Assembly: GCA_949155905.1 (NCBI GenBank)
Contig: CASCWU010000004.1
Coordinates: 174 to 64,173, forward strand
Direction of reading: 5' to 3'
DNA from: an uncultured Lachnospiraceae bacterium
GTDB taxonomy: Bacteria; Bacillota; Clostridia; Lachnospirales; Lachnospiraceae
DNA length: 64,000 nucleotides
The notes below the pieces were generated by a model. The model saw only the letters and a program-made list of their open reading frames with translations, had not been told where the DNA came from and made no database searches. Position 1 is the stretch's first letter. Each line of letters starts with the position of its first letter. Shown here piece by piece: positions 13,559 to 61,579 of this stretch. The translations under genes and the position numbers were made by a program.

Positions 13559-13611
13559 CTCCATCTCCTCTTTCTTTCCCATTCTAAACTTTTCTTATGA
13601 AAATTTCTTTT

Positions 13612-37185: not shown

Positions 37186-37419
37186 ATGACGACTGTTACT
37201 ACAACAGAACTACAACAAGATTTCGGAAAATATTTACAGATGGTGCAGGCAGGAGGAGAAGTTATCATTTTAAAAAACGGAAAAGAAGTAGCCCGGTTAA
37301 TTTCCCATGAAAAAAGTATTTCTTTTTTGACGGATTCTTTAACTGGTATTTTAAAGGGAGATTATGATGACAAAATGATAACAAAAGAAAGGATGCAGAA
37401 ATATGAAAATATTGGTTGA
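37186..37419 (+). CDS. Type II antitoxin, Phd/YefM family
   Basis: 77 aa with an AGGAGG RBS. VTTTELQQDFGKYLQMVQAGGEVIILKNGKEVARLIS is the Phd/YefM N-terminal fold pattern. It overlaps the toxin gene by 17 bp. Confidence 0.8.
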   Translation: MTTVTTTELQQDFGKYLQMVQAGGEVIILKNGKEVARLISHEKSISFLTDSLTGILKGDYDDKMITKERMQKYENIG

Positions 37420-37822
37420 TACAAATGTGCTTCTTGATGTACTTTGTAAAAGACCAGCCTTTTATGAAGATTCTGCAAAAATATTCAAATTATGTGAAGC
37501 CGGGGAAGTATCTGGTATAATTTCTGCCCTGTCTGTTCCTAATATTGTTTACATTATGCGGAAGGAATTAGATACAGAAAAAATCAAGCACACTTTAGAA
37601 AATTTATCTCTTATCTTCTCTATTATGGATTTAACAGGAGAAGATTTACACAAGGCAGCAAATATGGACTTTAAAGATTATGAAGATGCTATACAAAGTG
37701 CCTGTGCGGTTCGCGCTAAAGCAAACTTTTTGATTACGAGAAATATTTCTGGTTTTGGGAAAAGCCAGATCCCTGCCCTTCTTCCTTCCGAACTATTGAC
37801 CAACTTCACCTGTTCCATATGA
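37403..37822 (+). CDS. Type II toxin, PIN-domain (VapC-like) ribonuclease
   Basis: MKILVDTNVLLDVL (first acidic residue), with downstream acidic residues (DYEDAIQ, ITRN). Confidence 0.8.
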   Translation: MKILVDTNVLLDVLCKRPAFYEDSAKIFKLCEAGEVSGIISALSVPNIVYIMRKELDTEKIKHTLENLSLIFSIMDLTGEDLHKAANMDFKDYEDAIQSACAVRAKANFLITRNISGFGKSQIPALLPSELLTNFTCSI

Positions 37823-40468: not shown

Positions 40469-40834
40469 ATGCAGATTATCATCGAACCGCATAGCACCTA
40501 TGCCATTTATGAACAAATCGTCAACCAGATGAAAAACGCCATTGTTTCCGGTGTCCTGTCGGCTAACGAGGCGCTGCCCTCTATCCGTGGGCTGGCAGCG
40601 GAAATCGGCGTAAGTGTTATCACAACCAAACGCGCTTATGAGGAGCTAGAAAAGGAAGGACTGATTCGCTCTGTAGCCAACAAAGGTTTTTATGTCTGCG
40701 AATACAATACGGACTATTTGCACGAAAAACAACTGATACAGTTGGAAAAGCATTTTTCCGAATCGATCCGGCTGGCGCGGCAGGCAGGGCTGTCCGATGA
40801 GGAAATCCGGGATATGCTGGATGGATTATTATAA
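40469..40834 (+). CDS. GntR-family (YtrA-like, short) transcriptional regulator
   Basis: 121 aa with a GGAGGAGG RBS. LPSIRGLAAEIGVSVITTKRAYEELEKEGLI is the GntR wHTH. Confidence 0.85.
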   Translation: MQIIIEPHSTYAIYEQIVNQMKNAIVSGVLSANEALPSIRGLAAEIGVSVITTKRAYEELEKEGLIRSVANKGFYVCEYNTDYLHEKQLIQLEKHFSESIRLARQAGLSDEEIRDMLDGLL

Positions 40835-41302: not shown

Positions 41303-42604
41303 ATGATGCAGACCTATACCCTCTCCGGCCGGAGGAGCGCTTCCCGTTACGCCTCCCAGGACAGCCTGGAGGACGCCCTTTTCTATTTAAAACACCCTCA
41401 GTCCTTCCGCACCTTTAGCAAGGGACTGACCGAATTATTGCAGAAAAAAGGCTTTTCCGGCGACAGCACAAAGCCGGAAGAGCTGGCGGACTATCTGTTT
41501 CCCCGTCTACAGGAGATTTCCTCTGGTATCAGCCGGAAAACACTCCTCTCCTGGCTTTCCGGAAAGCACAGTCCCAAAATCGAAGCAAGCAGCAGACGTT
41601 CGATGTACGAGCTTTGCTTTGCTCTAAATCTGACCTATGAGGAAACACTTTGGTTTTTCCAGCATGTCTACTACGACCGAGCCTTTAATTGCCATACGAT
41701 AACGGAATCTGTCTTTTACTATGCCTTCCTGCATGGGCTTTCCTATGCCAAGGCTTTAAAACTGATCGAGTATATCGAATCTGCTCCGGCCGGAGAAGCG
41801 GCCTCTCTGTCTCCTTCCTACACACACTTTGTTCAAAGCAGCATCACCAACTTTCGTTCCGCCGAAGAGCTGACTGATTTTTTGATCCACAACCGGGAAA
41901 ATTTCCATCTCTGGAACCAAAGCGCCCAGACACACCTTCATGCTCTGGTAAACGATCTGCTTGGCTCCTCTGCCTTTCGGACAGAACTAGACCGTTTGAA
42001 ACGGCTGCTGGCAAGAAATCGCCGCTCCGGTCATCTGTCTCACCCTTCCCTTCCAAAGCAAATCCGTTCTGACCAAAAAGGAGCCTACGGGCTTATTCTG
42101 CAGGAAATCTTTTTCGATGCCTGCTGCTCCTCTGCGGAATCTGCCGCCGAGGCAGTTTTAGAGCAGATCGAACATCAAAACGTATTTTCCTACAGCTTTT
42201 TGCTGCGCTATCTTTTGTCCACTTCAGCAGGTACGAAAAGAGAACCTTCCATTCCTTATGTAGTGCGAAACAACTTTCCCAGCAAGAAAGTACTCTCCGA
42301 CGTGCTTTCCGAGGAAAAGCTTTCTGTCTCCAAATCCTATGACTCCATCCGAAAAATGCTGGTACTGCTGGATTTTTACCGTTTTTGGGTTCGGATCAAG
42401 CTAGGTCTGGCAGAGCTTACCGATATCCCGGCAAGTCAGCAGTTTGACATTTACTTGGAGGAAGCGGATCACCTTCTCTGGCAATGCGGCTACGAAGGCC
42501 TGTACGCTGGAAATCCCTATGACTGGATTTTTCTCTGCGCGGGACAAAGTGAAAATCCGCTGGACTTTTTCCGTTCCTTTATCAGTGAATTGCTCCCGGA
42601 GTAG
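41303..42604 (+). CDS. Hypothetical protein (possible degenerate N-terminal HTH)
   Basis: 433-aa ORF with an AAGGAG RBS. ISRKTLLSWLSGKHSPK resembles an XRE recognition helix, but no domain is confidently recognised. Its 3' end overlaps the convergent HTH gene by 23 bp. Confidence 0.5.
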   Translation: MMQTYTLSGRRSASRYASQDSLEDALFYLKHPQSFRTFSKGLTELLQKKGFSGDSTKPEELADYLFPRLQEISSGISRKTLLSWLSGKHSPKIEASSRRSMYELCFALNLTYEETLWFFQHVYYDRAFNCHTITESVFYYAFLHGLSYAKALKLIEYIESAPAGEAASLSPSYTHFVQSSITNFRSAEELTDFLIHNRENFHLWNQSAQTHLHALVNDLLGSSAFRTELDRLKRLLARNRRSGHLSHPSLPKQIRSDQKGAYGLILQEIFFDACCSSAESAAEAVLEQIEHQNVFSYSFLLRYLLSTSAGTKREPSIPYVVRNNFPSKKVLSDVLSEEKLSVSKSYDSIRKMLVLLDFYRFWVRIKLGLAELTDIPASQQFDIYLEEADHLLWQCGYEGLYAGNPYDWIFLCAGQSENPLDFFRSFISELLPE

Positions 42605-42827
42605 GCTGTATCCGATAGCCCTCCTTCTGCCGATCATATATTAGCCTTCTGTCCCGCCCGCTTTCTACCCGTTCCTCCGCCAGAAACGCCTTGATGTCCG
42701 CGATATCGCGTTGTACCGTCCGTATTGTCACCTGAAATTCCTGAGCGGCCTGTACCGGGTTAATACATTTGCCCTCATCCAGCCATACATACAGCCTCAA
42801 AATTCTGTAATTTTTGTTTGTCTTCAT
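42582..42827 (-). CDS. Small HTH protein (HTH_11/YafY N-terminal-like, no WYL domain)
   Basis: 81 aa with an AGGAGG RBS. INPVQAAQEFQVTIRTVQRDIADIKAFL is the HTH_11-type motif. It lies 119 bp downstream of the kinase-STAND gene on the same strand. Confidence 0.6.
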   Translation of the reverse strand: MKTNKNYRILRLYVWLDEGKCINPVQAAQEFQVTIRTVQRDIADIKAFLAEERVESGRDRRLIYDRQKEGYRIQPTPGAIH

Positions 42828-42946: not shown

Positions 42947-45900
42947 TTAGAAGCGATGCTTAAATTCAACCTCTTGGTGCTGATACTTCTCCTCTATCCG
43001 CTCCAAAAGAGCTATACAGCGTTTTTCCTCCTCCTCACTGCCACAAACATCCCGACATCCTGCCATCCTCTCCTTCCATCGTATCACCACATCCACCAAA
43101 TCCGTCTCAATCCCCTGCTCCAAAAGCAGCCAAGCCTTCTCCCATAAGAAAAGATGGTTCGAGTTAGAGGAGCAGCCTGACTGAAATATACCTTTCGGGA
43201 AAACCCGTTCCACCTCCGGATCGGTTTCCAGCCCAATATACAACGCTGCCAAATAAATTCCGATTGCTTCTGGCTTTCTGGATACCTCCATCAGAGAGTC
43301 GGCGATCTGGCTGACCTTTTCCATCCATTTTCTTCTTTGAGCCTGATTCCATCCATCCTCCGAATCTTTCAAATCCTCTGCCTTCCTTGCTTCCGCTGCC
43401 TTCTCTGCCAGATAATCTCTCGTCCTGCCATACCACTCTTCCAATAAGCGTTCCGCCACTTCCTGTTCTGCATTCCCGCCCGATGGCTGCTTCGCTTCTT
43501 GTTCCGCACTTCTGGCTGACACCCAAACTGCTTCCTGCATCATATCCCAGTAACAGCCGTCCAGTCCGTTCCATTCCTCCTGACCGAAAATCGGTCTGAT
43601 CACCGCTAATGCCTTGTTTAAGCAGGCGGCTTCCTTCTCATAGCAATCCAGATAACGATACTGTCCTGCCGCCTCCCGCCAAAGCTCCACCTGCTGTTCC
43701 TTTCCATAGCTTCCCTCTTGAAGTTCCCGCTCCGCCAGCAGCCAGAAATCACACTTTGCTTTTACTGCCCGCAGCTGCTCATATCCGCATTCCTCGTCTT
43801 TCAAAAGCAAATCCGCCCTTGTCCGGTAAATCAGGCTTTGAAGATACGAATCCTCCAGGCCATATCGATCATACCATTCCTGCGCCCGGTTACAGCTTTC
43901 CTGGGCAGAATGCAGATCTCCGTCTGGATATTCTGCATACAACTCCGCTAATTTACATAAAAGTATGATAAAGCAGGAAAAATCCGTCGATTTTCTTGTC
44001 CTTTTTTTTGCTGGCATGTTATCCTCTTCTACGGACTCTGTCTTTGGAAGATTTTTCTCCAGAAATGTCTCGATCAGCCGCTCCTTCCCCCGGTTCCCGT
44101 TCCATTCCTCCAGCCGATCCAGCAAACCGGACAGTTCTTCACCAGTTACCGGCTCTCGTTCGACATAGGTAAGGATAAAGTCCAGGCAGTTCTGGTCAAT
44201 TTCCTGATCGCCCAGCCTTTTATACGAACGCAGACATTCCTGCCACAAGCTTTCCCGTTCCGTCTCTTTTTCCTCTAACAGATACAAAAAATAATATCCG
44301 TCCAGGACGCACGATGCCCTTTTATCTGTGATCAGTCTCCTGGCATACTGTTTTGCCTTCTCCCGTTCTCCCTGCTGGATCAGGATTTGGATAAGGTCAA
44401 TACAAAGATAGGCCGAACACAACTCCTCTTCCTCAAACAGCCGCTCCAGCCAGGAGATTGCCAAAGCCGCCTCCCCTTGCTCCAGATACACATGAGCGAT
44501 TCGTTGCACCGTCTGATCGTACGGCTCATATTCTTCCTCATACCCCCTTTGATAAAATGTGATTGCCTCTTCGTACCGTCCCTCCTTCCGGCACCTCTCT
44601 GCCAAATCTACAAAAGAAACCCCTCCTATTTGTATCGTCTCTAACTCTTGTACTTCCTCTACTGTCTGTACTGTCTGTGCTGCCTCCGATACGCCTCCCA
44701 TCGTTTCGGCTTCTCTTCTTAGCTGCCGGATCTTCTCCTGATATCCATACGCTTTTTCCGCGTCAGAAAAATACTCACAGCGGTACAGCGCCGTAAAATC
44801 GTCTTCTTTGTAAAATTCCTGAATCCTCCTGTAGAGCCTTTCCTTCTCAGAGGCTGAATAAGAGGTAAACGGAAGCCGCTCCGCTGCCTGGTCAAACAGC
44901 TCTATGATGCTTTCATAAATCCGATCCAGCTCCGGCTCCCGTTCCTCAAAGTACCAGAGCATATTTCCGGCGAGGACGCTGTCTACCTCCCTCCCGATTG
45001 CAATCCATTCCCGCACCATCCAATCCAGCTTCCGAGAAGGTTCTGCCTCCTCCTTTAAAGCCTCTCTTGAGCCTTCCTGTAAAGCTCCCTCAAAAGCTTT
45101 TCCGCAAAAGAGCACCGCCTTTTCTAGCAGCCCCTCTATCGCATGAAAGCACCTCCTGGAATATTCCTCCAGTTCCAATCCAGACTCCAGGATATCCTCA
45201 CATTCCCCGATCTGCCTGATTTTTTTCCGGTAAATTCTCTGCAGCAGATCAAAGGCCTCCGCTGTACCAGCCTGGATACAAATCTGCTCCGCTTCCTCCA
45301 GCTTCTCTGCTCTCCCATCCCTCAGACACAGTCTGGCATAGGGAAGCGTCCATCCGGACAGGCGATCCATAAAGCCTGCAAACACCCGTTTCCGAACCGT
45401 CCGTTCCGCTTCGTTTGCAAGATCAGCAGAAAGATAAGCAGACATCCCCGCTACAATATGGGGACAGTTCCCGGCGTCCGGCTGTAACTCGGCATAAACC
45501 AGATCCTGGATCACCTGATGGAGCGATACCTTCCCGGAAGCCTCCCAAAGCTCTATCCAGCCATTTTTGATCAGGCTATCCAGCCTTGCTCGAACCCCTT
45601 CCATGCCGCACAGCTCCTCCAGCCTGTCCCTGCGGATACGGATTCCGCCCAGCAAGGAAAGACTGCCCATCAGCTCCCGTTCCCCTTCGTCAAAGCTGGA
45701 GCAGTCAAACAGCACCTGCAAATGGCGGTTGACACTTTCCAGACGCAGCCTCCGATCCTTCCTCTGCCGAACCTCTATTTCCCCAGTATTGGTAATCCCT
45801 TCTTTTTTCAGAAAATCCTTATACAGACGGATCGGCGACTGGCCGACATTCCTCAAATATTTGGCGATCAGCTCGACCGTCATTGTATGGCGTTCCACCA

Positions 45901-47452
45901 GCTCTATCAGCTCTACGATAGCCTTCTCTTCCTCCTCGGTATAAGGCAAATCGTTGTATGCCATGAATATTTCTAACATTTCCTGTAAATCGTCAAGCTG
46001 CCCTACCGAAATCTGCTCGTAATTGTAATCCCGGAAATCCTTTCTTGTCGTAATGAGAAACTTGCAAGGACAGCAAAACAATTCCTCCAGGTTTTCGTCC
46101 AGCTCCTGATCCATATTGTCAAGGATAATCAAATCGTCCGGCGCCGCCAACTGCTTTAACAGCTCCAGCTTTCTCTGAAAATATTCACGGTCAGATTCTG
46201 TTTCCTCCCTGTTGAGCTGATGAAAGCCGATTTCGTCACAGACAAGCTGCTCGATGCTTTTTTCAAACACTGCAAATACCACTGTGCGATATTGCCTGCG
46301 GCGGCTTTGGGCATACTGTTTTGCCAGCTCTGTCTTGCCGATTCCGCCGATCCCGGAAAGAAACACCAGTTGACTGTTCGCCAATACCTCGTCGATCTGC
46401 GCTAACTCCCTTTCCCGTCCGGCAAAGCAGGCGGAATGATACGAAAAAGAATCCAGCAAATAGATTTCCTCCAAATCAGAAAGCCGAATCAGTTCGTCTA
46501 GCTGTGCCAAAACCGGCTCAACAGACTGCCACCGGGAAGCTGCGGCAATAGAAAGTGTTTTACGGAAAAAATGCTCCAAAGCCCGATAAAGTCCCGGCGA
46601 ATATGGCTCCTCTGCATAGCGCATCGACTCAAAGCAGTAATGGCTTGCCAGTCTTCCCTCCGTTTCACCGGGTGTCCTGCCGAACAGCTTCTCAAACACC
46701 AATGCGCCGATGGCATAAATATCCGTGTGCATCCCGATTTTCTCCCGGTTCCCCTGCACCTGCTCCGGCGCACAAAAGCCCTCCGAATACGGCAGCCAAA
46801 GCTCCTTTTTTCCGGCCAGATCCTCTATGCGGATCACCGAATCCACATCAAACAGGACAACATGTTCCTCTGTCTCTGGCAAAAGAAAGATATTTTCCGG
46901 CTTGATATCCAGATGAAGATACCCGTTTCTGTGATATTTTCCGATCAGCTCCGTCAGGCTTTTCGTATGTAAAAACAGCTCCTTTAAGGAACGATCCTGG
47001 TAGCTCCTGTAATCCTCGCCCTCCTCCATCGCTACCCGGAGATAGACCGTGTTATGAAAAAACAAAAGATCCGTCGGGTTACTGGTAGAATTGATAAGCC
47101 CTAATGTATTCCTAAGCGCTACGTTTCGCTCGTAGGTCTTTAAAAAACGCTCCTTCGCCTGTTCCAGCCGCGCCTCTTCTTTTTCTTTTCTTTTTTCTTT
47201 TCCTTCCTCTCCCCTTTCCTCTTCCTCTTTCTCTACGGTCAGATCTCCCTCGCTGTTTCTGGATACCGCCAGGGAAACCGGATAGCATTCCTTTAACCGG
47301 ATCGTATGCGGTATACCAATGCTATCCTGATAAACCGCGTTATAGACAAGGCAACTCGCCCCTCTTCCAATTTCTTCCTTTATCTGGATGTGTTCCTTTG
47401 CCGAAAGCGGCAGAAGTGCGCCATATGGCAAGGCGATTCTATGATCCTCCAT
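42947..47452 (-). CDS. Ser/Thr protein kinase - NB-ARC/STAND P-loop NTPase - TPR/helical repeat giant protein (~1500 aa)
   Basis: Start at MEDHRIALPYG with AAGGGGGA 5 nt upstream. Kinase motifs: IGRGASCLVYNA (G-loop), TIRLKE (Lys), HLDIKPENIFL (catalytic loop), LFDVDS (DFG position), GFCAPEQ (APE). NTPase motifs: FAGRERELAQI..VFLSGIGGIGKTELA (Walker A, nt about 46331..46354) and LIILDNMD (Walker B). More than 850 aa of helical/TPR-like repeats follow (e.g. YEEAITFYQRGYEEEYEPYDQTVQRIAHVYLEQGEAALAISWLERL). Confidence 0.85.
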   Translation of the reverse strand: MEDHRIALPYGALLPLSAKEHIQIKEEIGRGASCLVYNAVYQDSIGIPHTIRLKECYPVSLAVSRNSEGDLTVEKEEEERGEEGKEKRKEKEEARLEQAKERFLKTYERNVALRNTLGLINSTSNPTDLLFFHNTVYLRVAMEEGEDYRSYQDRSLKELFLHTKSLTELIGKYHRNGYLHLDIKPENIFLLPETEEHVVLFDVDSVIRIEDLAGKKELWLPYSEGFCAPEQVQGNREKIGMHTDIYAIGALVFEKLFGRTPGETEGRLASHYCFESMRYAEEPYSPGLYRALEHFFRKTLSIAAASRWQSVEPVLAQLDELIRLSDLEEIYLLDSFSYHSACFAGRERELAQIDEVLANSQLVFLSGIGGIGKTELAKQYAQSRRRQYRTVVFAVFEKSIEQLVCDEIGFHQLNREETESDREYFQRKLELLKQLAAPDDLIILDNMDQELDENLEELFCCPCKFLITTRKDFRDYNYEQISVGQLDDLQEMLEIFMAYNDLPYTEEEEKAIVELIELVERHTMTVELIAKYLRNVGQSPIRLYKDFLKKEGITNTGEIEVRQRKDRRLRLESVNRHLQVLFDCSSFDEGERELMGSLSLLGGIRIRRDRLEELCGMEGVRARLDSLIKNGWIELWEASGKVSLHQVIQDLVYAELQPDAGNCPHIVAGMSAYLSADLANEAERTVRKRVFAGFMDRLSGWTLPYARLCLRDGRAEKLEEAEQICIQAGTAEAFDLLQRIYRKKIRQIGECEDILESGLELEEYSRRCFHAIEGLLEKAVLFCGKAFEGALQEGSREALKEEAEPSRKLDWMVREWIAIGREVDSVLAGNMLWYFEEREPELDRIYESIIELFDQAAERLPFTSYSASEKERLYRRIQEFYKEDDFTALYRCEYFSDAEKAYGYQEKIRQLRREAETMGGVSEAAQTVQTVEEVQELETIQIGGVSFVDLAERCRKEGRYEEAITFYQRGYEEEYEPYDQTVQRIAHVYLEQGEAALAISWLERLFEEEELCSAYLCIDLIQILIQQGEREKAKQYARRLITDKRASCVLDGYYFLYLLEEKETERESLWQECLRSYKRLGDQEIDQNCLDFILTYVEREPVTGEELSGLLDRLEEWNGNRGKERLIETFLEKNLPKTESVEEDNMPAKKRTRKSTDFSCFIILLCKLAELYAEYPDGDLHSAQESCNRAQEWYDRYGLEDSYLQSLIYRTRADLLLKDEECGYEQLRAVKAKCDFWLLAERELQEGSYGKEQQVELWREAAGQYRYLDCYEKEAACLNKALAVIRPIFGQEEWNGLDGCYWDMMQEAVWVSARSAEQEAKQPSGGNAEQEVAERLLEEWYGRTRDYLAEKAAEARKAEDLKDSEDGWNQAQRRKWMEKVSQIADSLMEVSRKPEAIGIYLAALYIGLETDPEVERVFPKGIFQSGCSSNSNHLFLWEKAWLLLEQGIETDLVDVVIRWKERMAGCRDVCGSEEEEKRCIALLERIEEKYQHQEVEFKHRF

Positions 47453-47518
47453 AAAATCCCCCTTTCCCTTACCTTTTCTTTTTCTCACATTTCTTTTTCC
47501 TATTTAGAAAGAACTTCC

Positions 47519-48112
47519 TCAAATTGCCCCTTTTGTCAGCACAATATCCTCCAGCCGTCTCTTAGGCACATAATGAACATCCTGCTCATCCCGGTAATAC
47601 CCGGTAGATCCGCCCTCCTCCGCCTCGGTCAGCACCACCGTCTCGTCCGGCTTTCCAAAGGCCACGATCAGCATCGGCACAAGATACTCCGGCAAGCCAA
47701 GCTCCGCCTTTACCTCATCTCCGTTAAAATTCCCGATCATGCAGCCGCCCAGTCCCTGCTCAGTCGCCGCCAGCAGCATGGTCTGTGCCACGATTCCTAC
47801 ATCCTTTAAATACCGCTGCAAAGATTCTCCCAACCGGGTATCCTGGCAAATCACAACAAAACCAGTCGGACAGTGTCCCGGATGCGGTAGCGTCAGTTCC
47901 GGCAACCCGCGCGCCCATTTGGTCAGCGCCTGGATCTGGTCTACCTCCCTCTTCTCCCACGCCAGATAGTAGCGGAACGGCTGCGCATTGACACTCGACG
48001 GCGACAGTCTGGCGCACTCTACAAAACTTTCCAACTCCGCCTTGGTGAGGCGGCGGGATTCGTCGTAGCCGCGGTAGCTTCGGTTTTTTCTTACTAAATC
48101 CTGAAAATTCAT
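47519..48112 (-). CDS. Nitroreductase family protein
   Basis: Start at MNFQDLVRKNRSYRGYD with an AAGGAGG RBS. LSPSSVNAQPFRY is the FMN-site motif. Confidence 0.85.
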   Translation of the reverse strand: MNFQDLVRKNRSYRGYDESRRLTKAELESFVECARLSPSSVNAQPFRYYLAWEKREVDQIQALTKWARGLPELTLPHPGHCPTGFVVICQDTRLGESLQRYLKDVGIVAQTMLLAATEQGLGGCMIGNFNGDEVKAELGLPEYLVPMLIVAFGKPDETVVLTEAEEGGSTGYYRDEQDVHYVPKRRLEDIVLTKGAI

Positions 48113-48178
48113 AATTTTTCCTCCTTTATTGCGTTTCCTCTCATCATACACTGGGTTCTCTGCCAGCATAGATAGTGT

Positions 48179-49243
48179 TCATTTTGTATCACTGCCCTTT
48201 TCCTGCAACGCCGGATGCTGCATGTAAAAAATCTCTTTTTGCCGTTCGACTTCCGCCCGAAGCTGCTCTTTCGTCGGAAGATACGTCATGTACTTGGACA
48301 TAAACAGCCGTTCATTGTCATGCAGCACAGAGTATCTGGCAATGTCCTCACTGGTTTCACTGCAAAGCAGTATTCCCAAAGTCGGATTGTCTCCCTCTTT
48401 GCATTTGAGTGCATCATACATCCGTACATACATATCAATTTGACCTACGTCCTGATGGGTAATTTTCCCCATTTTCAAATCAATGAGAACATAACATCTC
48501 AGCTCGATATTGTAAAAAACCAAATCAATATAGTAATCCTCTGTATCTGTAATAATGTGCTGCTGCCTAGCCACAAACGCAAAGCCCTTTCCCATTTCTA
48601 TCAGAAAGTCCCGAATATGCAATAAAATAGCCGTCTCCAAATCCGTTTCAGCAAAGGAATCTTCAGACCGAAATCCCAGAAATTCTGCAACAACGGGATT
48701 TTTTAGCAGCTCGAATTTGTTCTGTTGATACTCCGCCGTTTTTTCTTGCATCTCTGCAATTACAGTTTCCTTTTTGGGTGACTGTAATAGCCGATAATAA
48801 TATTGCGTACCAATGTTGCGATCTAACGTTCTGTAATTCCAGCCTTCGTTGGCCGCTTCCCTCATATACCAAATTCTTGCATTCTCATCCGGTACACGCA
48901 AAAGACTCCTAAAATGCGTCCAGCTTAGATTATGAACGCATGCGTTCACAATCTGCTTATCTGGAAAATACAGATAGAATTTTCTAAAATAGTGCAGATT
49001 CCGTTCGGAATAGCTTTTGCCAAACTCTTTTTTCAGTTCCTCTGATAATACGGGAATCAGCCGCTTTCCATATTCCGCCCGTTCACTGCCTTCCTGTTCC
49101 TGCTCTACGATCCGTTTACCAATGTGCCAGTAAGTCAGCACCATAGCGGTATTTGCGGCACTGTATGCGTTTTGCTGACCTGCTGAAATAATCTCTTTTA
49201 TCTCTGTGATGATTGGCTGGTATAGCATGAAATCCTTTTCCAT
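48179..49243 (-). CDS. DUF1016 / YhcG-like PD-(D/E)XK nuclease family protein
   Basis: Start at MEKDFMLYQP with a GAGGTGGG RBS. The N-terminus has AYSAANTAMVLTYWHIGKRIVE. The C-terminal nuclease core is YYIDLVFYNIELRCYVLIDLKMGKITHQDVGQIDMYV. Confidence 0.8.
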   Translation of the reverse strand: MEKDFMLYQPIITEIKEIISAGQQNAYSAANTAMVLTYWHIGKRIVEQEQEGSERAEYGKRLIPVLSEELKKEFGKSYSERNLHYFRKFYLYFPDKQIVNACVHNLSWTHFRSLLRVPDENARIWYMREAANEGWNYRTLDRNIGTQYYYRLLQSPKKETVIAEMQEKTAEYQQNKFELLKNPVVAEFLGFRSEDSFAETDLETAILLHIRDFLIEMGKGFAFVARQQHIITDTEDYYIDLVFYNIELRCYVLIDLKMGKITHQDVGQIDMYVRMYDALKCKEGDNPTLGILLCSETSEDIARYSVLHDNERLFMSKYMTYLPTKEQLRAEVERQKEIFYMQHPALQEKGSDTK

Positions 49244-49244
49244 A

Positions 49245-49382
49245 TCAGCCCACCTCGATTTCCGTGATGATTTTGTCAATTTCCTCATAAGGTACACAGC
49301 GGGCGAAATACTCAACATCCGCAATCGTCCATATCGCACGATGGAATTCCTCACACTCTTGTTCTTTTCTAATATCAGCCAT
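49245..49382 (-). CDS. Small ORF (45 aa) translationally coupled to the DUF1016 gene
   Basis: MADIRKEQECEEFHRAIWTIADVEYFARCVPYEEIDKIITEIEVG. Its ATG overlaps the stop of the upstream mini-ORF (ATGGCTGA), and its TGA lies 1 nt before the DUF1016 ATG. No family is recognised. Confidence 0.3.
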   Translation of the reverse strand: MADIRKEQECEEFHRAIWTIADVEYFARCVPYEEIDKIITEIEVG

Positions 49383-49619: not shown

Positions 49620-50132
49620 CTACTTTCTCTCCCTGCCCAGCATCCTTTGCTTAAACGCCCTGATTCTCTTTCCATACCGGCTGGTAAACAATGCCCCGAC
49701 GAGCAGCATTCCAAAATCCAGCCCCAACGCGGCATCCGCTATGTTCGCATACACGCCCTCCGAGGTCAGACCCCGGACGTCCAGCACAAAATAAACGATA
49801 AACGCTGCTACTGCAATCAGGAACAGGATATTCAGCCGTTTAATCAGAAGCAGCCGTTCCTCGTTCCCATAATCTGCTACTTTCAATAACGATTCCTTTG
49901 TTTTCTCATCCATACTCTCTGCCTTCCTTTCTCCCTCTAATAATTCCTCGATACTGACATCAAAATAATCCGCAAGCTCAATGACCAGATCAATATCCGG
50001 CATATTTGTCCCGGTCTCCCATCGGGAAACGCTTCGGTTGCTTACTCCCAGATACTCAGATAGCTGCTCCTGCGTTAGTCCCTTTTCCTTGCGGAGTTCT
50101 TTTAAGAACGTCCCAAATTTTTTTTGGTTCAT
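49620..50132 (-). CDS. XRE-family HTH regulator with C-terminal transmembrane segments
   Basis: LTQEQLSEYLGVSNRSVSRWETGTNMPDIDLVIELADYFDVSIEELL, followed by two hydrophobic helices (LNILFLIAVAAFIVYFVL, ALGLDFGMLLVGALF). Confidence 0.8.
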   Translation of the reverse strand: MNQKKFGTFLKELRKEKGLTQEQLSEYLGVSNRSVSRWETGTNMPDIDLVIELADYFDVSIEELLEGERKAESMDEKTKESLLKVADYGNEERLLLIKRLNILFLIAVAAFIVYFVLDVRGLTSEGVYANIADAALGLDFGMLLVGALFTSRYGKRIRAFKQRMLGRERK

Positions 50133-50444
50133 GCTCCAGGCTTCCTCCTTTCCCTGTCAGCATAGCACATTTTGATATGAAAAAACACGACATAGAACGA
50201 GAATTTCTCCATTTTCCAGCCTTTCCTGTTTTATGGCAATCCAAATTTCAGCCTGCCAAGAGCGTCTTCTTTTTCCTGACAAAACAAGGAAAGGCGCTGT
50301 TTTTATAATGCCGAATTTTATATTGTGAATATATGCACAATATTCATGCGCTTATTTTTCAGGCATAATCATATCATGCTATAAATTCATGCACAAAAGC
50401 ACACCTGGAATCAGACAGGCGAAAACGCTGGGAGGGAGATTGCA

Positions 50445-50657
50445 ATGATTGATTTTACCCCTTTATGGGAAACGATGGAAAAAAAGAACATCTCGCAGTA
50501 TAAGCTATTAAAAAGCGACATCAACAACAAGACCTTGGATATTTTGAAAAATGACGGAAATATTACTCTTCTCACTTTAGAAAAAATCTGCCGTGCTTGT
50601 GATTGTACGCCAAATGAAGTAGTGCGCTTTATAGAGGGAGAAAACCAGGAGATATAA
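50445..50657 (+). CDS. Short XRE/HTH_26-type DNA-binding protein
   Basis: 70 aa with a GGGAGGGAG RBS. ISQYKLLKSDINNKTLDILKNDGNITLLTLEKICRACDCTPNEVV. Confidence 0.7.
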   Translation: MIDFTPLWETMEKKNISQYKLLKSDINNKTLDILKNDGNITLLTLEKICRACDCTPNEVVRFIEGENQEI

Positions 50658-50734
50658 AAGGGGGAATAAACTAAAAACAGAAAACACTATCGTCGGATTC
50701 ACTTTGTAAAGAACAAAAGAAAAGGAGAAAACAA

Positions 50735-51298
50735 ATGTCTTTTCATTACTTTTCTACAACAAATCCCGCTTGGGAAAAAGCAGGCGACAAGGAAAAATTT
50801 GCCCGTCTTTACCAGACCTATAAATCGGATATGTATCAGACTGCATTCTCCATCCTTTTAAACCATACTATGGCAGAGGATGCAGTACAGGATGCCTGTC
50901 TCAAGCTGATACACTATCTGGATAGTGTTGACGAGGAAGATACCCATCGTACAAAAGGCTATATAAAGGCGATTGTCCAGACAACTGCCCTTCATATGCT
51001 AAAAAGAAGCAAAAAGGAGTTTCTTTACGAGCCACATTTATTAGAGGAATTATCCTCTGAAAAAGCCGCCTCTCCGGAAATTCAGTTTTTAGGGAAAGAT
51101 TTAGCGGGTTATTTAAGACAGTTTATTGGCGAATTAAAGCCAAAGGAACAGCATTGTATTTATCTGTTTTATTTTAAAAGGCAAAGCACCCTTCAAATAG
51201 CGGAGAGCCTGGGTGTCTCTCCTGCGGCTGTCCGAAAAAGACTGCAGCGGGGCAGAGAGGCTTTGCGCAAGCATCTGGAAAAGGAAGGCCTGCTCTAA
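50735..51298 (+). CDS. Sigma-70 family (ECF-like) RNA polymerase sigma factor
   Basis: Region 2 (LLNHTMAEDAVQDACLKL) and region 4 (STLQIAESLGVSPAAVRKRLQRGREALRKHL). Confidence 0.8.
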   Translation: MSFHYFSTTNPAWEKAGDKEKFARLYQTYKSDMYQTAFSILLNHTMAEDAVQDACLKLIHYLDSVDEEDTHRTKGYIKAIVQTTALHMLKRSKKEFLYEPHLLEELSSEKAASPEIQFLGKDLAGYLRQFIGELKPKEQHCIYLFYFKRQSTLQIAESLGVSPAAVRKRLQRGREALRKHLEKEGLL

Positions 51299-55887: not shown

Positions 55888-57564
55888 ATGAAAAAGGTCA
55901 ATATTCCTGTTGGTCGTTCCGATTTTGAACACATCAGAAAAAATGATTTTTATTATATTGATAAAACTGGATTAATCGAGGAATTGTTGAAAACAGATGC
56001 TACACAGGTCACTCTGATCACCCGTCCCAGACGTTTTGGAAAAACACTTGGCATGAACATGATGGCAGAGTTTTTTGACATCCGAAAGGACAGCCATGCA
56101 CTGTTTGAGGGACTATCCATTTCAGAAAATAAGGCTCTGTGCAAGGACTGGATGAACCAGTACCCCACTATTTTTATTTCCTTCCGAACTGTAGATGGGC
56201 TCCGTTACGAGGAGGCATATGCCAGCTTGTATAGTACCATAGAAAATCTATATACAGCTCATTTTTATTTGATGGACAGTGAGAAATTAATTGCTCCCCA
56301 GAAAGCATTTATCCAAACGATTCTGGAAGAAAAAGCCAAACCGATGCACATAAAAAACAGCCTGTTAAAGCTGACCGAAATGCTCTATACCCACTACGGC
56401 AAGCCTGTCATCCTTCTTATGGATGAGTACGATGTTCCTCTGGCAAAGGCAAGTGTAAACGGCTATTATAAAGAAATGCTAAGTACCATTCGGGGTGTTA
56501 TGTCCGTACTCAAAGATAACCCCGCCCTGTGCTTTGCCGTCGTGACTGGCTGTTTACAAATTGTAAAAGAAAGCATCTTTACCGGCACCAACAACTTTGT
56601 ATCCGATACCATCTCTGACTCTCGGTTGGACGAATATTTTGGATTTACACAGACAGAGGTAGACAAACTCCTGCTGGATACTGAACTGACAGATCATGTG
56701 GATGAGATTAAGGATTGGTATGATGGCTACCATTTCGGCAAGCATGATATTTACTGCCCCTGGGATGTGATGAACCATGTAAAAAATCTATTGCTCAATC
56801 CTGCCACACCGCCTGCTGCCTACTGGGAGCATACCAGCCACAACGACATCATCTACCAGTTCATCAGCACAACCGAAGCAGACGTCAACGATAAGTTTGA
56901 AACGCTGCTCACCGGAGGCTATATCATGGAAGCGATTGAACCAAACCTGACCTATGATATACTACACTCTTCTGAAAAAAATATCTGGACGCTGCTGTAT
57001 TTTACCGGCTACCTGACCAAAATGTGTCCGAAGGATATCCCGGAAAAATTGGGGGATGGGAGCTTTGCGCTGACGATACCAAATACAGAAATTAAGAGGC
57101 TGTTCCGAAAAAGTGTGAACGAATGGTACCTGGCCAAAACAGAAGCCAGCGACCGTTCTGAGTTATTTGACGCTCTGTGGAAAGGCGATGCCGAACGGCT
57201 GCAGGAGTATCTCAATGATACACTTTTTGACACGATCAGCTTTTATGACTACCAGGAAAACTTTTACCATGCCTTTCTGACAGGCCAGCTTTCCCGGAAA
57301 GGCTACGTCGTAAAATCCAACCGTGAAAACGGACTGGGCCGTTCGGATATTACAGTAAAAGACCGCAAAAACCGCCGCGCTATTGTCATCGAAACGAAGG
57401 TTACAGGCTCGGAAAGTGATCTGGATTTCCTCTGTGACAAGGCTCTGGCACAGATCGTAGAAAATCAGTATAACAAGGAAATAGAACAGTCCGGCTATCA
57501 GCAGGTGCTTTGTATTGGGATTGCATTTTATAGGAAACAGTGCCGCGTGAAAGTGGCAGACTAA
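55888..57564 (+). CDS. AAA-ATPase-like (PF09820-type) + PDDEXK_9 nuclease-fold protein
   Basis: PVGRSDFEHIRKNDFYYIDKT, Walker A-like TRPRRFGKT, Walker B ILLMDEYDVPL. The C-terminal motif GLGRSDITV..AIVIETKV fits D..ExK. Confidence 0.8.
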   Translation: MKKVNIPVGRSDFEHIRKNDFYYIDKTGLIEELLKTDATQVTLITRPRRFGKTLGMNMMAEFFDIRKDSHALFEGLSISENKALCKDWMNQYPTIFISFRTVDGLRYEEAYASLYSTIENLYTAHFYLMDSEKLIAPQKAFIQTILEEKAKPMHIKNSLLKLTEMLYTHYGKPVILLMDEYDVPLAKASVNGYYKEMLSTIRGVMSVLKDNPALCFAVVTGCLQIVKESIFTGTNNFVSDTISDSRLDEYFGFTQTEVDKLLLDTELTDHVDEIKDWYDGYHFGKHDIYCPWDVMNHVKNLLLNPATPPAAYWEHTSHNDIIYQFISTTEADVNDKFETLLTGGYIMEAIEPNLTYDILHSSEKNIWTLLYFTGYLTKMCPKDIPEKLGDGSFALTIPNTEIKRLFRKSVNEWYLAKTEASDRSELFDALWKGDAERLQEYLNDTLFDTISFYDYQENFYHAFLTGQLSRKGYVVKSNRENGLGRSDITVKDRKNRRAIVIETKVTGSESDLDFLCDKALAQIVENQYNKEIEQSGYQQVLCIGIAFYRKQCRVKVAD

Positions 57565-58282: not shown

Positions 58283-59644
58283 CTAACCGTATAGTTTCGG
58301 TAAGTAGGAGGTAAACTTACCATTACTTTTTTGTTCCAGCTTACCCTCCTCACACATTTCTTTTAAAAGTCTAAACGCCTTTGTACTTTTAAATCCTGTA
58401 ATTTCTTCGGCTTCTTTCCTGCTAACAGCGCCCTGTTCTAAAGCAAACTGATACACGGCTTGCTTTACCTGTTCAAATGAATTATCTCTGTCTTGCATTC
58501 TTTTTATCTTTAGATACGCGCTTGCAGCAGGTTCCCCTCCTTCATTACGATTATACAGCAGAACAGAAAATGCCCCCTCCGCTGTCTGGAATACAGGTTC
58601 ATAGCCTGCTTTTGGATACAGGCGTTTCATCTTTCGGATACCTGTTCCGTAACTCTCTACCAGCTTCAGGCGGTAAAAGACAGCCGCGAGATTCGGATTA
58701 CGCGACTGGGAAACGCCCATCATGATCGCATCCATTGATAAGCCGCTTACCAAACCTCCCAGAGAATTAAACTCCACATGTTCATCAAACATATTGATGA
58801 TTGTGCTGCCGCTAAAGAGATAATCTCTATGGATAATACTGTTTAAAAGCGCTTCTCTGATGGCTTCTTCCGGATAATCCCTCTGATCTACCCTCTCAAG
58901 ACCCAAAAATGCCGCCCTTGTTTTATTATAAAAATCCAGAAATTGATGGGCATCCTTCAGTTGCTTCAACACAGAACCACCAAATTCTTTTCGCTCTCTG
59001 AAAACCGCATTATCACAGCCTTGAAAAATAGCAGCCTTTATCGTATACGGACACTGTTCCGATAAAAGCAATGCCAGGTTTGTATATAGCCCATCTCCGC
59101 CAACCATCTTCAGCGTTTTCATCTGCATGAAACCAAATTCGAGATGCCGTTTCTCCATTTCAGCTTCTAAAGTTTCAAAGGTCAGCTCCTGATTCATGCT
59201 TCTGCTTTCCTCAAAGGATTTCCCGGATGTTTCCATAATCATAGAGCGAATACCTGCTTCATTTACAGGAATACTTGCAGCTCCTCTTCTAAGATAAACA
59301 CCCTCTGGAACCAGCCCCTTCTTTCTCAAATAGTACGGCCTCTCCGTTCCGACAGAGACCGTAACCTTCACAATTGTCTTTCCCTCTTCCTCTTCCTCTC
59401 TAATCTGAATAAATGGTATAATATCCGGAAGAATCGTATCGTGCAGTGTATTGGAGACTTTCGTCATCACATCATCCAGATCCGTAACTCCTATGATTGT
59501 TCCATCATCCCGAACACCAATATACACTTCCCCACCCTCTGTATTTGCAAAAGCACAGACTTCTTTTGAAATGCTTTCTGGCAATTTCCCAGTTATACGA
59601 TCCAGTTCTTTGAACTCAGTATCGACACTCTCGATTCTTTTCAT
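58283..59644 (-). CDS. Schlafen/AlbA_2 domain + HATPase_c_4-like + C-terminal wHTH protein (RecG-like putative DNA-binding protein)
   Basis: ESVDTEFKEL..VCAFANTEGGEVYIGVRDDGTIIGV (AlbA_2), LLNSIIHRDY (HATPase_c_4-type), and the C-terminal SRKEAEEITGFKSTKAFRLLKEMCEEGKL (wHTH). Confidence 0.8.
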   Translation of the reverse strand: MKRIESVDTEFKELDRITGKLPESISKEVCAFANTEGGEVYIGVRDDGTIIGVTDLDDVMTKVSNTLHDTILPDIIPFIQIREEEEEGKTIVKVTVSVGTERPYYLRKKGLVPEGVYLRRGAASIPVNEAGIRSMIMETSGKSFEESRSMNQELTFETLEAEMEKRHLEFGFMQMKTLKMVGGDGLYTNLALLLSEQCPYTIKAAIFQGCDNAVFRERKEFGGSVLKQLKDAHQFLDFYNKTRAAFLGLERVDQRDYPEEAIREALLNSIIHRDYLFSGSTIINMFDEHVEFNSLGGLVSGLSMDAIMMGVSQSRNPNLAAVFYRLKLVESYGTGIRKMKRLYPKAGYEPVFQTAEGAFSVLLYNRNEGGEPAASAYLKIKRMQDRDNSFEQVKQAVYQFALEQGAVSRKEAEEITGFKSTKAFRLLKEMCEEGKLEQKSNGKFTSYLPKLYG

Positions 59645-59806: not shown

Positions 59807-61579
59807 TTATGCCATCATAACCATACATTCTTTCTCACAAAACGCTATACCATATTTTATCATTTTCTTCATGCCCCGGTGCTTCAGTCCTTCCGCATAT
59901 TTCTTATCCTCGATTTGTTTTAACGCTTCCACACAGGCTGCCTTCAGGTTGCCGCTATCTGCATATTTCAGTTCGATCACGATCCCGGTTCGTTCCTGAG
60001 TGCAGACGGAGATATCACTGTAGCCTTCTCCGGTTTCCGCGTTAGACTGGATCAGCCAATTCCCCTGACTCCGCAAAAGTCCAAGCAGCATACCGTGATA
60101 AAAATTCTCTTTCCGGTTTATCCGAACTGCCGTATCCCGCACGCTGATAGAATCCCACAGGTAATCATGAAGCATTTCCTGGATGATAGTCACATCCCCG
60201 GCTGGGAAGGCTGCGCAAAAACGATTGATTCTCGCCGAGTCGGAATGTGTCACTTCCCGAAACCAATCCTGCACCAAGTCAGAAAACAGTTTACGGATTT
60301 CGCCATTTGGAATCCACAGCCGGAATACATCCGCGTCTGCCTGCTCTACGTGCTTTCCTGTCAGGTATCCGGCAGAGTAAAGTACACTCCATACATGTTC
60401 CGTACGGTCATCTATCTCTCGGTATGTTAGCTCCTGTTTGATTCGTTTTGTTATTTCCCCACCACTTAACAACTCTTCTATTTCCTCTTTGGCCGTCTGA
60501 TCCGCCATTTTTAACATCCGGAGGAGCAGATCGTTTCCGCTGGTATTGGCCCAGTAGTTTTTAGGCAGGGCAATCGGATCTGCCAGCAGATCATCACAAT
60601 AATTGATAACATCCCAGGGGCAGTATACCTCTGCAGCCCCAAAGTGATACCCGTCATACCAGTCCTGTATCACGTTCTTATAAGAGGACAGACCATAGAA
60701 TGTTAGAAGTTCCTCCACATCTGCGTTCGTAAAGCCAAAAAACTCATCATATCGAATATCTGAGATCGTGTGTACCTTTAGATTGTTAAAGCCAGTGAAG
60801 ATGCTCTCTTTGGAAATCCGCAGGCAGCCGGTAAGAACAGCGAAGTAAAGGCAGTCATTCGTCTTTAGAGCATTGCCAAGAAGATTACGAATGAGGTTTA
60901 CCATCTCCTCATAATATCCGGCTTGAAAGGCTTTATCCAATGGGACATCGTACTCATCGATTAGTAGAATAACTTTCTGACTGTAGTGCTTGGACAAAAG
61001 CTGGGAAAGTGTTTTCAGGCTGTCTACCAACGTAGCATCCGACATGGCATATCTCGCATTATTCTCTATCTCGACACGAATCAGTTGGCGGTACGAATTT
61101 TTGTCCTCCTCATCCAGTTTCACGCTTTCTAACAGAAAACGAAACCTGTCAGCCTCATTCCCAATTACGGTTCGCAGCGCTGCAGATGCCGCATGAAAAT
61201 TCAAACCATCCACGCCTTTCAGACTAATAGAAATTACCGGAAGCTTTCCCATATATTTTTCACACAGTTCTTTTTCCTGCATGATTTTTAATCCATCAAA
61301 CAGAGCCGGATCCGTTCCAATCTCAAAAAAACACTTTAACATACTCATGTTCAGGGATTTGCCAAACCGTCTGGGACGAGTAAACAAATTTACTTTTCCC
61401 CAATTTTGCAAAAGTTCCTTCATGAACATGGTTTTATCGACATAATAGAAATCCTCTGTTAAGAATTCCTCAAAATTTTCGATTCCAATAGGAAGCTTCT
61501 TTCTCACCTTTTCCACACTCCTTTCCGGCAGGCGCGGCATAAGCCACATGGATGACCATTCGCTTATACTGAAAAGCAT
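59807..61579 (-). CDS. AAA-ATPase-like + PDDEXK_9 nuclease-fold protein (paralogue of 55888..57564)
   Basis: LPIGIENFEEFLTEDFYYVDKT, TRPRRFGKS, ILLIDEYDVPL, GEGYSDISV..GIVIELKY. The true start may be the GTG at 61507 (VRKKLPIG), since family members usually begin just before LPIG. Confidence 0.8.
   Translation of the reverse strand: MLFSISEWSSMWLMPRLPERSVEKVRKKLPIGIENFEEFLTEDFYYVDKTMFMKELLQNWGKVNLFTRPRRFGKSLNMSMLKCFFEIGTDPALFDGLKIMQEKELCEKYMGKLPVISISLKGVDGLNFHAASAALRTVIGNEADRFRFLLESVKLDEEDKNSYRQLIRVEIENNARYAMSDATLVDSLKTLSQLLSKHYSQKVILLIDEYDVPLDKAFQAGYYEEMVNLIRNLLGNALKTNDCLYFAVLTGCLRISKESIFTGFNNLKVHTISDIRYDEFFGFTNADVEELLTFYGLSSYKNVIQDWYDGYHFGAAEVYCPWDVINYCDDLLADPIALPKNYWANTSGNDLLLRMLKMADQTAKEEIEELLSGGEITKRIKQELTYREIDDRTEHVWSVLYSAGYLTGKHVEQADADVFRLWIPNGEIRKLFSDLVQDWFREVTHSDSARINRFCAAFPAGDVTIIQEMLHDYLWDSISVRDTAVRINRKENFYHGMLLGLLRSQGNWLIQSNAETGEGYSDISVCTQERTGIVIELKYADSGNLKAACVEALKQIEDKKYAEGLKHRGMKKMIKYGIAFCEKECMVMMA

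Follow-up and report, generated by a model that had tools for sequence, protein, structure and literature searches.

The window analysed here, a stretch of 64,000 nucleotides (nt) from contig CASCWU010000004.1 of an uncultured Lachnospiraceae bacterium, carries on its minus strand a large gene (42947..47452, stop codon at 42947-42949) encoding a protein of 1,501 amino acids (aa). The gene is real and its product is confirmed to have three parts, a Hanks-type Ser/Thr kinase, an NB-ARC module of the STAND class and a TPR-like solenoid; it is called kinase-STAND below. Convergent to it lies a plus-strand gene for a 433-aa protein, the partner (41303..42604), which overlaps by 23 nt the 3' end of a minus-strand gene encoding an 81-aa stand-alone HTH_11 protein (42582..42827), located immediately downstream of kinase-STAND. 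A preliminary description of the locus had treated the large protein as a system of its own, with a small helix-turn-helix (HTH) gene immediately downstream and an unknown convergent protein of 433 aa as context. Both genes are present as described, the larger without a Pfam match, but they turn out to belong to a conserved module of two to three genes, the third component being optional. The core of this module, partner plus kinase-STAND, is very probably real.

In the list of open reading frames (ORFs) of the window, an uninterrupted ORF spans 42947..47488 on the minus strand. The start is placed at the ATG at 47452 because a purine-rich ribosome-binding site, AAGGGAAAGGGGG, precedes it and because homologues in a 25-sequence alignment share the MxDxRxAL N-terminus that this codon gives; a GTG start at 47488 was discarded on the same grounds. 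At least 697 homologues were found in a first search. The best 120 are mostly 1,400-1,550 aa long, the full-length ones among those listed are 34-45% identical to the window protein, and the named ones are labelled Lachnospiraceae or Lachnoanaerobaculum. Conservation across the family is uneven, with mean pairwise identities of 0.51 in the kinase, 0.58 in the nucleotide-binding domain (NBD) and 0.52 in the helical and winged-helix domains (HD and WHD), as opposed to 0.33, 0.31 and 0.25 in the three C-terminal thirds, which also contain many indels. The presumed sensor is thus the fast-evolving part of the protein (0.25-0.33 versus 0.51-0.58). In three species-representative metagenome-assembled genomes, the kinase-STAND frame is split in two ORFs or truncated (L026 9908-14274, L030 4142-8523 and L033 10001-11851; loci in other genomes are designated by L numbers throughout), which could be due to pseudogenisation or to assembly error.

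The kinase domain covers residues ~15-325 (46478..47410, minus strand), as delimited by the Pfam Pkinase match, an alignment to PpkA and the conserved catalytic residues. Pkinase scores 42.8 bits for a gathering cut-off of 31.7 and reaches the C-lobe only, because the N-lobe is interrupted. A sequence search of the PDB extends the assignment, since residues 20-294 align to PpkA (5hnv), a kinase of type VI secretion systems, with K54 on the lysine of the PpkA AIKEY motif; the C-lobe also aligns with StkP, PknA, PknB and DAP kinases. Eleven kinase residues are invariant in the 25 homologues (G29, R30, G31, D182, K184, N187, D202, P229, E230, D244 and R307), and K54 is nearly so (≥90%). Together with the profile score above threshold, the G-loop, the beta3 Lys, the catalytic Asp/Lys/Asn, the Mg-binding Asp and the Glu of APE define a Hanks-type kinase that looks competent, with catalytic residues kept family-wide. 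The catalytic loop HLDIKPEN, read from the translation, occupies residues 180-187 (46892..46915, minus strand). Throughout the family, HLD stands in place of HRD, and the kinase is therefore of the non-RD type. At the DFG position the family consensus is DFD and the window protein has DVD. Non-RD kinases, as Dardick and Ronald are said to have reported in 2006, often need no activation-loop phosphorylation and are over-represented among innate immune receptors of plants and animals. Finally, an E/K-rich insertion in the N-lobe (residues ~75-89; 47186..47230, minus strand) is missing from the displayed homologues and is lineage-specific.

The kinase is followed by an NB-ARC module of the AP-ATPase type (residues 343-665; 45458..46426, minus strand), supported by Pfam, by invariant motifs and by Foldseek. 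NB-ARC scores 26.4 bits (cut-off 23.5) and AAA_22 28 (cut-off 27), with AAA_16 at 32.5 for a cut-off of 32.6. The module shows the Walker A motif GIGGIGKT (46331-46354, minus strand), Walker B LIILDN, TTR and an MHD-like LHQ, and in the 25 homologues the invariant residues are G367 and G369-T374 in Walker A, D445 in Walker B, T468 and R470 in TTR and H645 in the MHD-like motif. Profile scores, an NBD-HD-WHD fold and the MHD-type histidine concur in placing the module in the NB-ARC/AP-ATPase group. An AlphaFold2 model of residues 330-1501, built from 31 sequences (mean predicted local distance difference test, pLDDT, 81.3), was compared with the PDB by Foldseek. The first, N-terminal third of the model resembles CED-4, ADP-bound Apaf-1, the NB-ARC of NRC1 (template modelling score normalised to the target, TMt, 0.61), Roq1 and ZAR1, all with probability 1.0. 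Residues 666-1501 (~835 aa; 42950..45457, minus strand), the presumed arm and sensor, are all-helical in the confident model (pLDDT 81) and match the TPR proteins Ctr9 and Ski3, IFT-A subunits and OGT; Pfam TPR matches are weak and confined to residues 947-1015. Because of these matches to CED-4, Apaf-1 and NLRs on the one hand and to TPR solenoids on the other, the large protein is modelled as a STAND of the AP-ATPase/NB-ARC type with a long TPR-like arm and sensor. A search with residues 900-1501 alone (42950-44755) returned no match, not even the identical protein P0001, and is uninformative on whether the sensor is shared with other heads; the empty result appears to reflect how a word-indexed search picks its candidates when the query is a helical repeat, and not biology.

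Most of what the preliminary description had said of the large protein stands. It had announced a single protein of ~1500 aa, which the uninterrupted ORF and the supported start bear out, and a cytoplasmic location, in line with the lack of any predicted transmembrane segment, or hydrophobic stretch of spanning length, in the large protein and in its 433-aa neighbour. Every motif that it quoted is found in the translation (GRGAS, RLKE, HLDIKPEN, DVD, APE, GIGGIGKT and LIILDNMD). A competent-looking Hanks-type kinase and a STAND P-loop module were both rightly recognised, in view of profile scores above the cut-offs and of motifs conserved in the 25 homologues. One figure needs correction: the insertion in the kinase, given as 25 aa, measures 15 residues relative to the family. 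The TPR-like repeats, rightly read as helical, extend over ~835 aa.

The evidence for a module comes from gene linkage. In 79 loci from species-representative genomes, all ORFs were searched by tblastn and by means of a partner profile. The first three contexts inspected already showed a gene of 427-441 aa without Pfam match, divergent from and upstream of the kinase-STAND gene, and the genes in this position in L001, L004 and L005 are 43-50% identical to the 433-aa partner. Wherever the sequence of a close-family locus reaches far enough upstream, exactly one partner adjoins kinase-STAND, with the exception of L043 (L009 and L087 are cut by contig ends and cannot be scored). This amounts to ~50 of the ~52 close-family loci with enough flank, the ~50 distinct loci including the distant pair L090 and three pairs on viral contigs (L091-L093). 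Most often the partner is divergent and directly upstream, with a gap of 100-350 nt, but it lies on the kinase-STAND strand in L028, L037, L047, L050, L090 and L093 and is convergent in the window only. The adjacency holds down to 27-31% identity of the large protein, and a distant partner member, P0430, sits directly upstream of a 975-aa Pkinase + NB-ARC gene. Since the adjacency survives rearrangement, a functional link is indicated. No partner gene was found in the loci of non-kinase relatives, including all TIR-STAND loci, or beside the more distant kinase-STANDs of ~27% identity or less (L059, L073, L074, L076, L079, L083 and L085). Thus, the partner tracks this particular kinase head and not the STAND or TPR parts. 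It is therefore proposed as a substrate or bound regulator of the kinase, which is its most likely role, and the conserved linkage suggests that it is needed as a second gene.

The partner itself has no match in Pfam even at E ≤ 10 (HMMER filters drop most matches above ~0.1), nor in PADLOC, NCBIfam or PHROGs, and a profile of 30 members retrieves nothing among PDB sequences. Its AlphaFold2 model (pLDDT 83.6; predicted template modelling score 0.84) is all-helical, with 25 helices, and has no global Foldseek match (best E 1.3 in the PDB and 0.39 in BFVD). Local Foldseek matches concentrate at the N-terminus, where the N-terminal domain of TP901-1 CI (probability 0.75), EspR (0.69) and viral HTH_XRE proteins (0.60-0.84) are retrieved with E-values all above 1. 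On this basis and that of hhalign, residues ~37-121 (41411..41665, plus strand) are assigned to a probable XRE-type HTH, although no match to HTH_3 or a related sequence profile is found in Pfam at E ≤ 10. The partner is thus read as having two parts, a probable XRE-like HTH, for which the support is weak to moderate, and behind it a helical body without structural match in the PDB or BFVD; its family has no known relative. This family is large, with at least 1,345 clusters at 50% identity (E ≤ 1e-3; 377 at E ≤ 1e-30) in an exhaustive profile search of 1.84 billion cluster representatives. Listed members are nearly all 170-510 aa long (one has 545 aa), and large multidomain fusions are absent from the matches listed. 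Its mean pairwise identity of 0.49 is about equal to that of the kinase domain (0.51). A resemblance to the RNPP/Rgg regulators was considered: they also join an N-terminal XRE-like HTH to an all-helical body of ~300 aa, and Rgg144 and PrgX are among the top global Foldseek matches. These matches are, however, non-significant (Rgg144, the best, has E 1.3, probability 0.10 and TM 0.14-0.20), the partner lacks sequence similarity to any PDB chain, and the assignment was rejected. So was the reading of the partner as a phage protein, given the lack of a PHROGs match and of a global BFVD match.

The third gene is present in ~20% of loci. Homologues of the HTH_11 protein are encoded directly downstream of kinase-STAND in L017, L019, L021, L023, L024, L086 and L088, and upstream, between the partner and kinase-STAND, in L014. 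The 81-aa protein scores 23.1 bits with Pfam HTH_11, just under the cut-off, and its N-terminus matches the PADLOC model for WYL regulators (1.2e-5).

What the module may do is suggested by the relatives of its STAND part. About 35 further loci match residues ~343-670 only, in proteins of ~800 aa that are 27-36% identical there. Ten of these non-kinase relatives were scanned: six have TIR_2 at the N-terminus, all ten have TPR_12, and nine have NB-ARC or, failing that, AAA_16, the remaining one (L065) showing only TIR_2, Sel1 and TPR. The order effector, STAND NTPase, repeat sensor that characterises Avs-type proteins is that of the large protein as well, and the preliminary description, which had invoked this logic, is borne out by the TIR domains that six of the ten relatives carry at the kinase position and by defence genes in or near the module elsewhere.

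Such defence genes were sought among 137 immediate neighbours at 36 loci (PADLOC threshold E ≤ 1e-10). The census returned type I restriction-modification subunits, type II endonucleases, JetA/JetD, HerA, IetA, mad8 and PDC-S05, so that Wadjet genes (JetA/JetD) occur among the flanking genes; recurrent Pfam families are AAA-ATPase_like + PDDEXK_9, resolvase and RhuM. In L022, a viperin-like gene with full-length PDB viperin matches at ~1e-25 stands between partner and kinase-STAND (3141-4945). The same slot in L018 (1921-4671) holds a viperin-like gene and then two IRG/GIMAP-like GTPases, which in the PDB match best, though at weak E-values (1e-5 to 1e-3), the interferon-inducible IRG and GIMAP GTPases, and in L008 a viperin-like gene lies 2 kb from the module (5479-6363). 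The pVip matches in L012 and L019 were rejected as viperins, the enzymes being SPASM/RiPP-maturase-like (RiPP, ribosomally synthesised and post-translationally modified peptide). A jackhmmer search of four rounds that started with the L022 viperin strayed to radical-SAM proteins of a generic kind. Several genomes have runs of two to three SPASM/RiPP-maturase-like radical-SAM genes less than 10 kb from the module (L012 14533-17660; L044 18072-21095; L019 10258-11580 and 17751-18749; also L026, L031, L016 and L041). In the PDB these genes match SkfB and the radical-SAM protein 5wgg best; they also match pVip, for which such maturases are a false-positive risk.

A second type of cargo is metabolic. 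The usual order of the class III ribonucleotide reductase genes is nrdD-nrdG, and the module-linked pairs are reversed. A short-form pair, nrdG and then an nrdD of ~550 aa, sits between partner and kinase-STAND, on the kinase-STAND strand, in four species (L005 5843-8004; L007 4358-6501; L010 7541-9966; L013 7778-9936), and in L001 (Lachnoanaerobaculum) the pair lies downstream, after a NERD gene (13366-15515). In L005, the end of nrdD and the beginning of kinase-STAND share 4 nt, and the NrdD proteins of L005 and L001 score above the TIGR02487 cut-off. The link could concern nucleotide metabolism or, because the pair occupies the slot held by viperin elsewhere, a nucleotide-based effector. 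Mobility is suggested by three IMG/VR viral contigs that carry the pair of partner and kinase-STAND, one of which adjoins a gene whose homologues lie close to prophage ends in Streptococcus suis and Oscillospiraceae. Besides Lachnospiraceae, the module is found in bins labelled Selenomonadaceae, Synergistaceae, Oscillospiraceae, Christensenella and Pelosinus. Cultured bacteria that carry it include Lachnoanaerobaculum sp. OBRC5-5 and L. eligens.

Collectively, these observations lead to the proposal of an NLR-like kinase module. A trigger would bind the fast-evolving TPR solenoid and release the NB-ARC from its ADP-bound closed state; ATP binding would then drive oligomerisation, as in Apaf-1, plant NLRs and Avs, and the clustered N-terminal non-RD kinase domains could be activated by proximity. 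Active kinases would phosphorylate the partner, with further proteins of the cell as possible substrates. Conserved residues T80, S83, T174 and S332 are candidate phosphorylation sites. The HTH of the partner may turn the signal into transcription, by derepression or activation, or the phosphorylated partner may release an inhibited kinase. These steps are modelled on the STAND biology of Apaf-1, plant NLRs, MalT and Avs (PMC4381067, PMC13581612). By this analogy the STAND switch probably controls the kinase. An immune role, against phages or in other conflicts, Avs-like with a kinase as effector and possibly inducible, is the most likely of the roles considered, with an even chance of being correct, and the explanation as a whole, that of a two- to three-gene NLR-like kinase module including its immune role, is equally balanced between true and false. 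The preliminary description had proposed a candidate for defence or signalling. The layout, the TIR-headed relatives and the defence genes nearby sustain the candidacy; no defence hidden Markov model (HMM) matches beyond the kinase domain, and the defence role therefore stays at the level of an inference.

An elaboration of this proposal, which appears improbable, is that the module is an inducible innate-immune pathway wired like the animal signalling from pattern-recognition receptor through kinase to transcription factor. The sensor kinase would detect infection and phosphorylate the partner, and the partner would switch on antiviral effector genes encoded between the two genes, namely viperin (L018, L022), IRG-like GTPases (L018) or a short class III ribonucleotide reductase (L005, L007, L010, L013), with other or unlinked targets in the window. 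Since in animals interferon induces viperin and the IRG GTPases, the parallel would extend to the output.

Several results weigh against the immune explanation or against single steps of it. No clear conservation is seen for the alphaC glutamate of the kinase, so that kinase activity is predicted only. When the partner is aligned by hhalign with a small XRE alignment, residues 37-115 fall in the same register with E 7e-4, but the probability is 26%. A conserved palindromic operator was searched for in 36 divergent partner/kinase-STAND intergenic regions, which gave nothing beyond shuffled controls. Single-HMM matches of PADLOC lack an established background rate (for location within 5 kb of known systems, a background of 1.5% is used in PMC13581612), and among the six neighbours matching pVip some are generic radical-SAM enzymes, only L022, L018 and L008 standing as viperin-like. 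NCBIfam Avs4 gives the large protein 15.5 bits for a cut-off of 1500, and neither PADLOC nor NCBIfam has a defence model that matches it beyond the generic kinase domain. No close relative was found on sequenced phages or plasmids, where distant kinase + NB-ARC genes appear only on plasmids of Ruminococcus albus 7 and Butyrivibrio proteoclasticus B316.

Other results of this kind favour a specific alternative, namely signalling unrelated to immunity, in which a metabolite, nucleotide or peptide of the cell itself would bind to the TPR sensor, the STAND switch would activate the kinase, and the kinase would phosphorylate the HTH partner, the HTH_11 protein or both, so as to regulate ordinary genes. 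The module would be a re-shuffled analogue of AfsK-AfsR, MalT, GutR or PknK; nucleotide supply is a possible target, because a short nrdG-nrdD is co-operonic in several genomes, either in the module slot or, as in L001, downstream. Partner and 81-aa protein are both DNA-binding-like, as would fit ordinary signalling of the AfsK/AfsR, MalT and PknK kind. Within the species the gene order (IlvD-GntR-partner-HTH_11-kinase-STAND-nitroreductase-DUF1016) is fixed in every contig recovered, from many independent samples with an identical partner or GntR gene, and partner variants of Lachnospira eligens are 97-100% identical. This constancy resembles that of a stable chromosomal regulator more than that of a patchy defence island; the preliminary description had itself named universal conservation with fixed synteny in the clade as a sign against its proposal, and within the species the same order is what every contig found showed. 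Housekeeping genes (RuvAB, TrpS, pyrimidine genes) flank the module in several genomes, e.g. L086 and L088, and in published trees the STAND proteins that regulate transcription are interspersed with immune clades (PMC13581612). On the other side, six of the ten non-kinase NB-ARC relatives are headed by TIR and not by a DNA-binding domain; viperin and IRG-like GTPases take, elsewhere, the operon position of nrdGD; restriction-modification, Wadjet and other defence genes are among the neighbours; the module is found on viral contigs and its taxonomic spread is patchy; and no cognate PP2C phosphatase is present among the window neighbours or the 25 commonest neighbour families. Signalling outside immunity is thus a tentative possibility, less probable than not.

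A toxin-antitoxin-like or addiction module, in which a growth-arresting kinase toxin is curbed by the HTH partner according to HipA/HipB logic and the STAND-TPR part adds regulation, is very unlikely. It would account for the specific linkage of the partner to the kinase head, for a pairing that stays tight across orientation changes and for the XRE-like HTH, a feature shared with the antitoxin HipB, and the same window holds a VapBC-like pair and other selfish-looking genes. However, the kinase is of the Pkinase and not of the HipA family (Pkinase, PknB and PpkA types are matched, with no HipA model among the matches), the partner, with 430 aa, is far bigger than typical antitoxins, the genes are usually divergent and do not form a tight bicistron, and the 1,170-aa STAND-sensor extension is left unexplained. 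Least credible is a single-gene Avs-type protein with the 433-aa and 81-aa genes as mere neighbours, e.g. local island regulators, for although the Avs and bNACHT proteins characterised by Gao et al. in 2022 and Kibby et al. in 2023 reportedly act as single genes, and many defence systems have separate WYL/HTH regulators of the kind that the PADLOC WYL match of the 81-aa protein recalls, the partner is adjacent in ~50 of ~52 loci, across rearrangements and down to 27-31% identity, is conserved like the kinase domain (0.49 versus 0.51) and never accompanies TIR-headed relatives.

Around the module, the window contains further genes of diverse character. Upstream of kinase-STAND, a nitroreductase gene (47519-48169) begins 9 nt after a minus-strand gene for a DUF1016_N + YhcG PDDEXK nuclease (48179-49354), a strong match to the PADLOC candidate defence family PDC-S02 (E 4e-139) that adds to the defence context, and ends 66 nt before kinase-STAND. 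A promoter and terminator scan gave nothing above background near the kinase-STAND gene and no promoter-like site in the 66-nt upstream gap; co-transcription of kinase-STAND with the nitroreductase and DUF1016 genes is possible. Neither neighbour is conserved at the other loci. Further regulators bracket the module, on one side a GntR-family gene of 121 aa, YtrA-like in size (40469-40834, plus strand), and on the other a 170-aa XRE HTH gene, an ECF sigma factor and an AraC regulator (49620-51298). Upstream of the GntR gene, all five same-species contigs that are long enough have a called ORF of 35 aa. Located 3.5 kb from the partner, a VapBC-type pair of PhdYeFM antitoxin (77 aa) and PIN_3 toxin (139 aa) with a 17-nt overlap looks intact (37186-37822, plus strand). 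A Schlafen AlbA_2/HATPase_c_4 gene (58283-59644, minus strand) is flanked by two AAA-ATPase_like + PDDEXK_9 genes (55888-57564, plus strand; 59807-61579, minus strand). Genes of the latter type are also found beside the module elsewhere (5 of the 137 neighbours, and also in L004), and their recurrence suggests a shared variable-region habitat. The nuclease module announced in the preliminary description is thus in place, but the several decayed genes that it mentioned are unsubstantiated, the short GntR gene and the PIN/Phd pair looking intact. Its view of the context as accessory-like is weak for this genome, given the fixed order in same-species contigs and the nitroreductase and DUF1016 neighbours that are not conserved elsewhere.

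Lachnospiraceae are among the most abundant bacteria of human and animal guts, and their repertoires of phage defence and signalling are poorly known. The module is widespread, with at least 697 homologues of the large protein, at least 1,345 clusters of a partner without annotation and identical copies in many metagenomes. If it is immune, the bacterial NLR-like repertoire would gain a kinase effector class together with an obligate second component whose fold matches none known, and the module would offer a direct test of NLR-like signalling by phosphorylation to a transcription factor instead of by cell killing. If it is not, gut anaerobes would have a new and large family of kinase regulators under STAND control, for which the recurrent link to class III ribonucleotide reductase is a lead.

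Among known systems, a layout of the Avs/NLR-like kind has precedents, and the kinase-headed family and its partner are uncharacterised; no paper on this Clostridia kinase-STAND family or on its partner was found in the literature. Computational work has already predicted conflict proteins of the AP-ATPase/TPR type with a kinase as effector, chiefly from actinobacteria, chloroflexi and cyanobacteria; many such kinases are catalytically dead (PMC7159879, PMC8195603). The TIR-NB-ARC-TPR proteins of Bacilli, Clostridia and Erysipelotrichaceae (L054, L061, L063, L065, L078 and L081) share the arrangement of NB-ARC and TPR_12, but they are ~800 aa long and lack a partner, TIR replaces the kinase, and the TPR region is much shorter. 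Avs1-5, Avs7 and bNACHT proteins likewise begin with an effector, continue with a STAND NTPase and end in a TPR-like sensor that evolves fast, and defence genes lie near part of the kinase-STAND family too. They differ in that the NTPase of the large protein is NB-ARC-like, a Hanks kinase replaces nuclease, SIR2 or TIR, and a separate partner gene is present; phage sensing by the kinase-STAND protein is a conjecture, and the 25 PADLOC matches shown are all to kinase-domain models, with no Avs model among them. The best of these scores go to PD-T4-6 (5.9e-16) and MkoA of Mokosh (2.4e-13). Compared with the single-gene defence kinases PD-T4-6, Stk2 and MkoA, however, the likeness covers the kinase C-lobe only (residues ~134-326) and these proteins have neither the NB-ARC-TPR body nor the partner; the large protein was rejected as a PD-T4-6 stand-alone kinase (~300-560 aa), as the matches span only residues ~134-331 of its 1,501 and its architecture differs.

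Apaf-1, CED-4 and plant NLRs display the same NBD-HD-WHD fold with P-loop, hhhhD, TTR and MHD-like histidine; the window protein is bacterial, with TPR and not WD40 or LRR, and with a kinase in place of CARD, CC or TIR. The remaining comparison is with PknK of Mycobacterium tuberculosis and AfsK-AfsR of Streptomyces, which join a Ser/Thr kinase, a STAND NTPase and TPR to a DNA-binding output. GerE, Trans_reg_C, BTAD and TPR_MalT have no match in the 1,501-aa protein at E ≤ 0.1. The large protein thus differs from PknK and AfsK-AfsR by the lack of LuxR/GerE, SARP/BTAD or MalT-type TPR, by its NB-ARC NTPase, by its Clostridia host and by a partner whose fold is unrelated to SARP. Kinase, STAND and TPR are nevertheless combined in both cases, and in the module described here the DNA-binding part would come in trans, from the partner.

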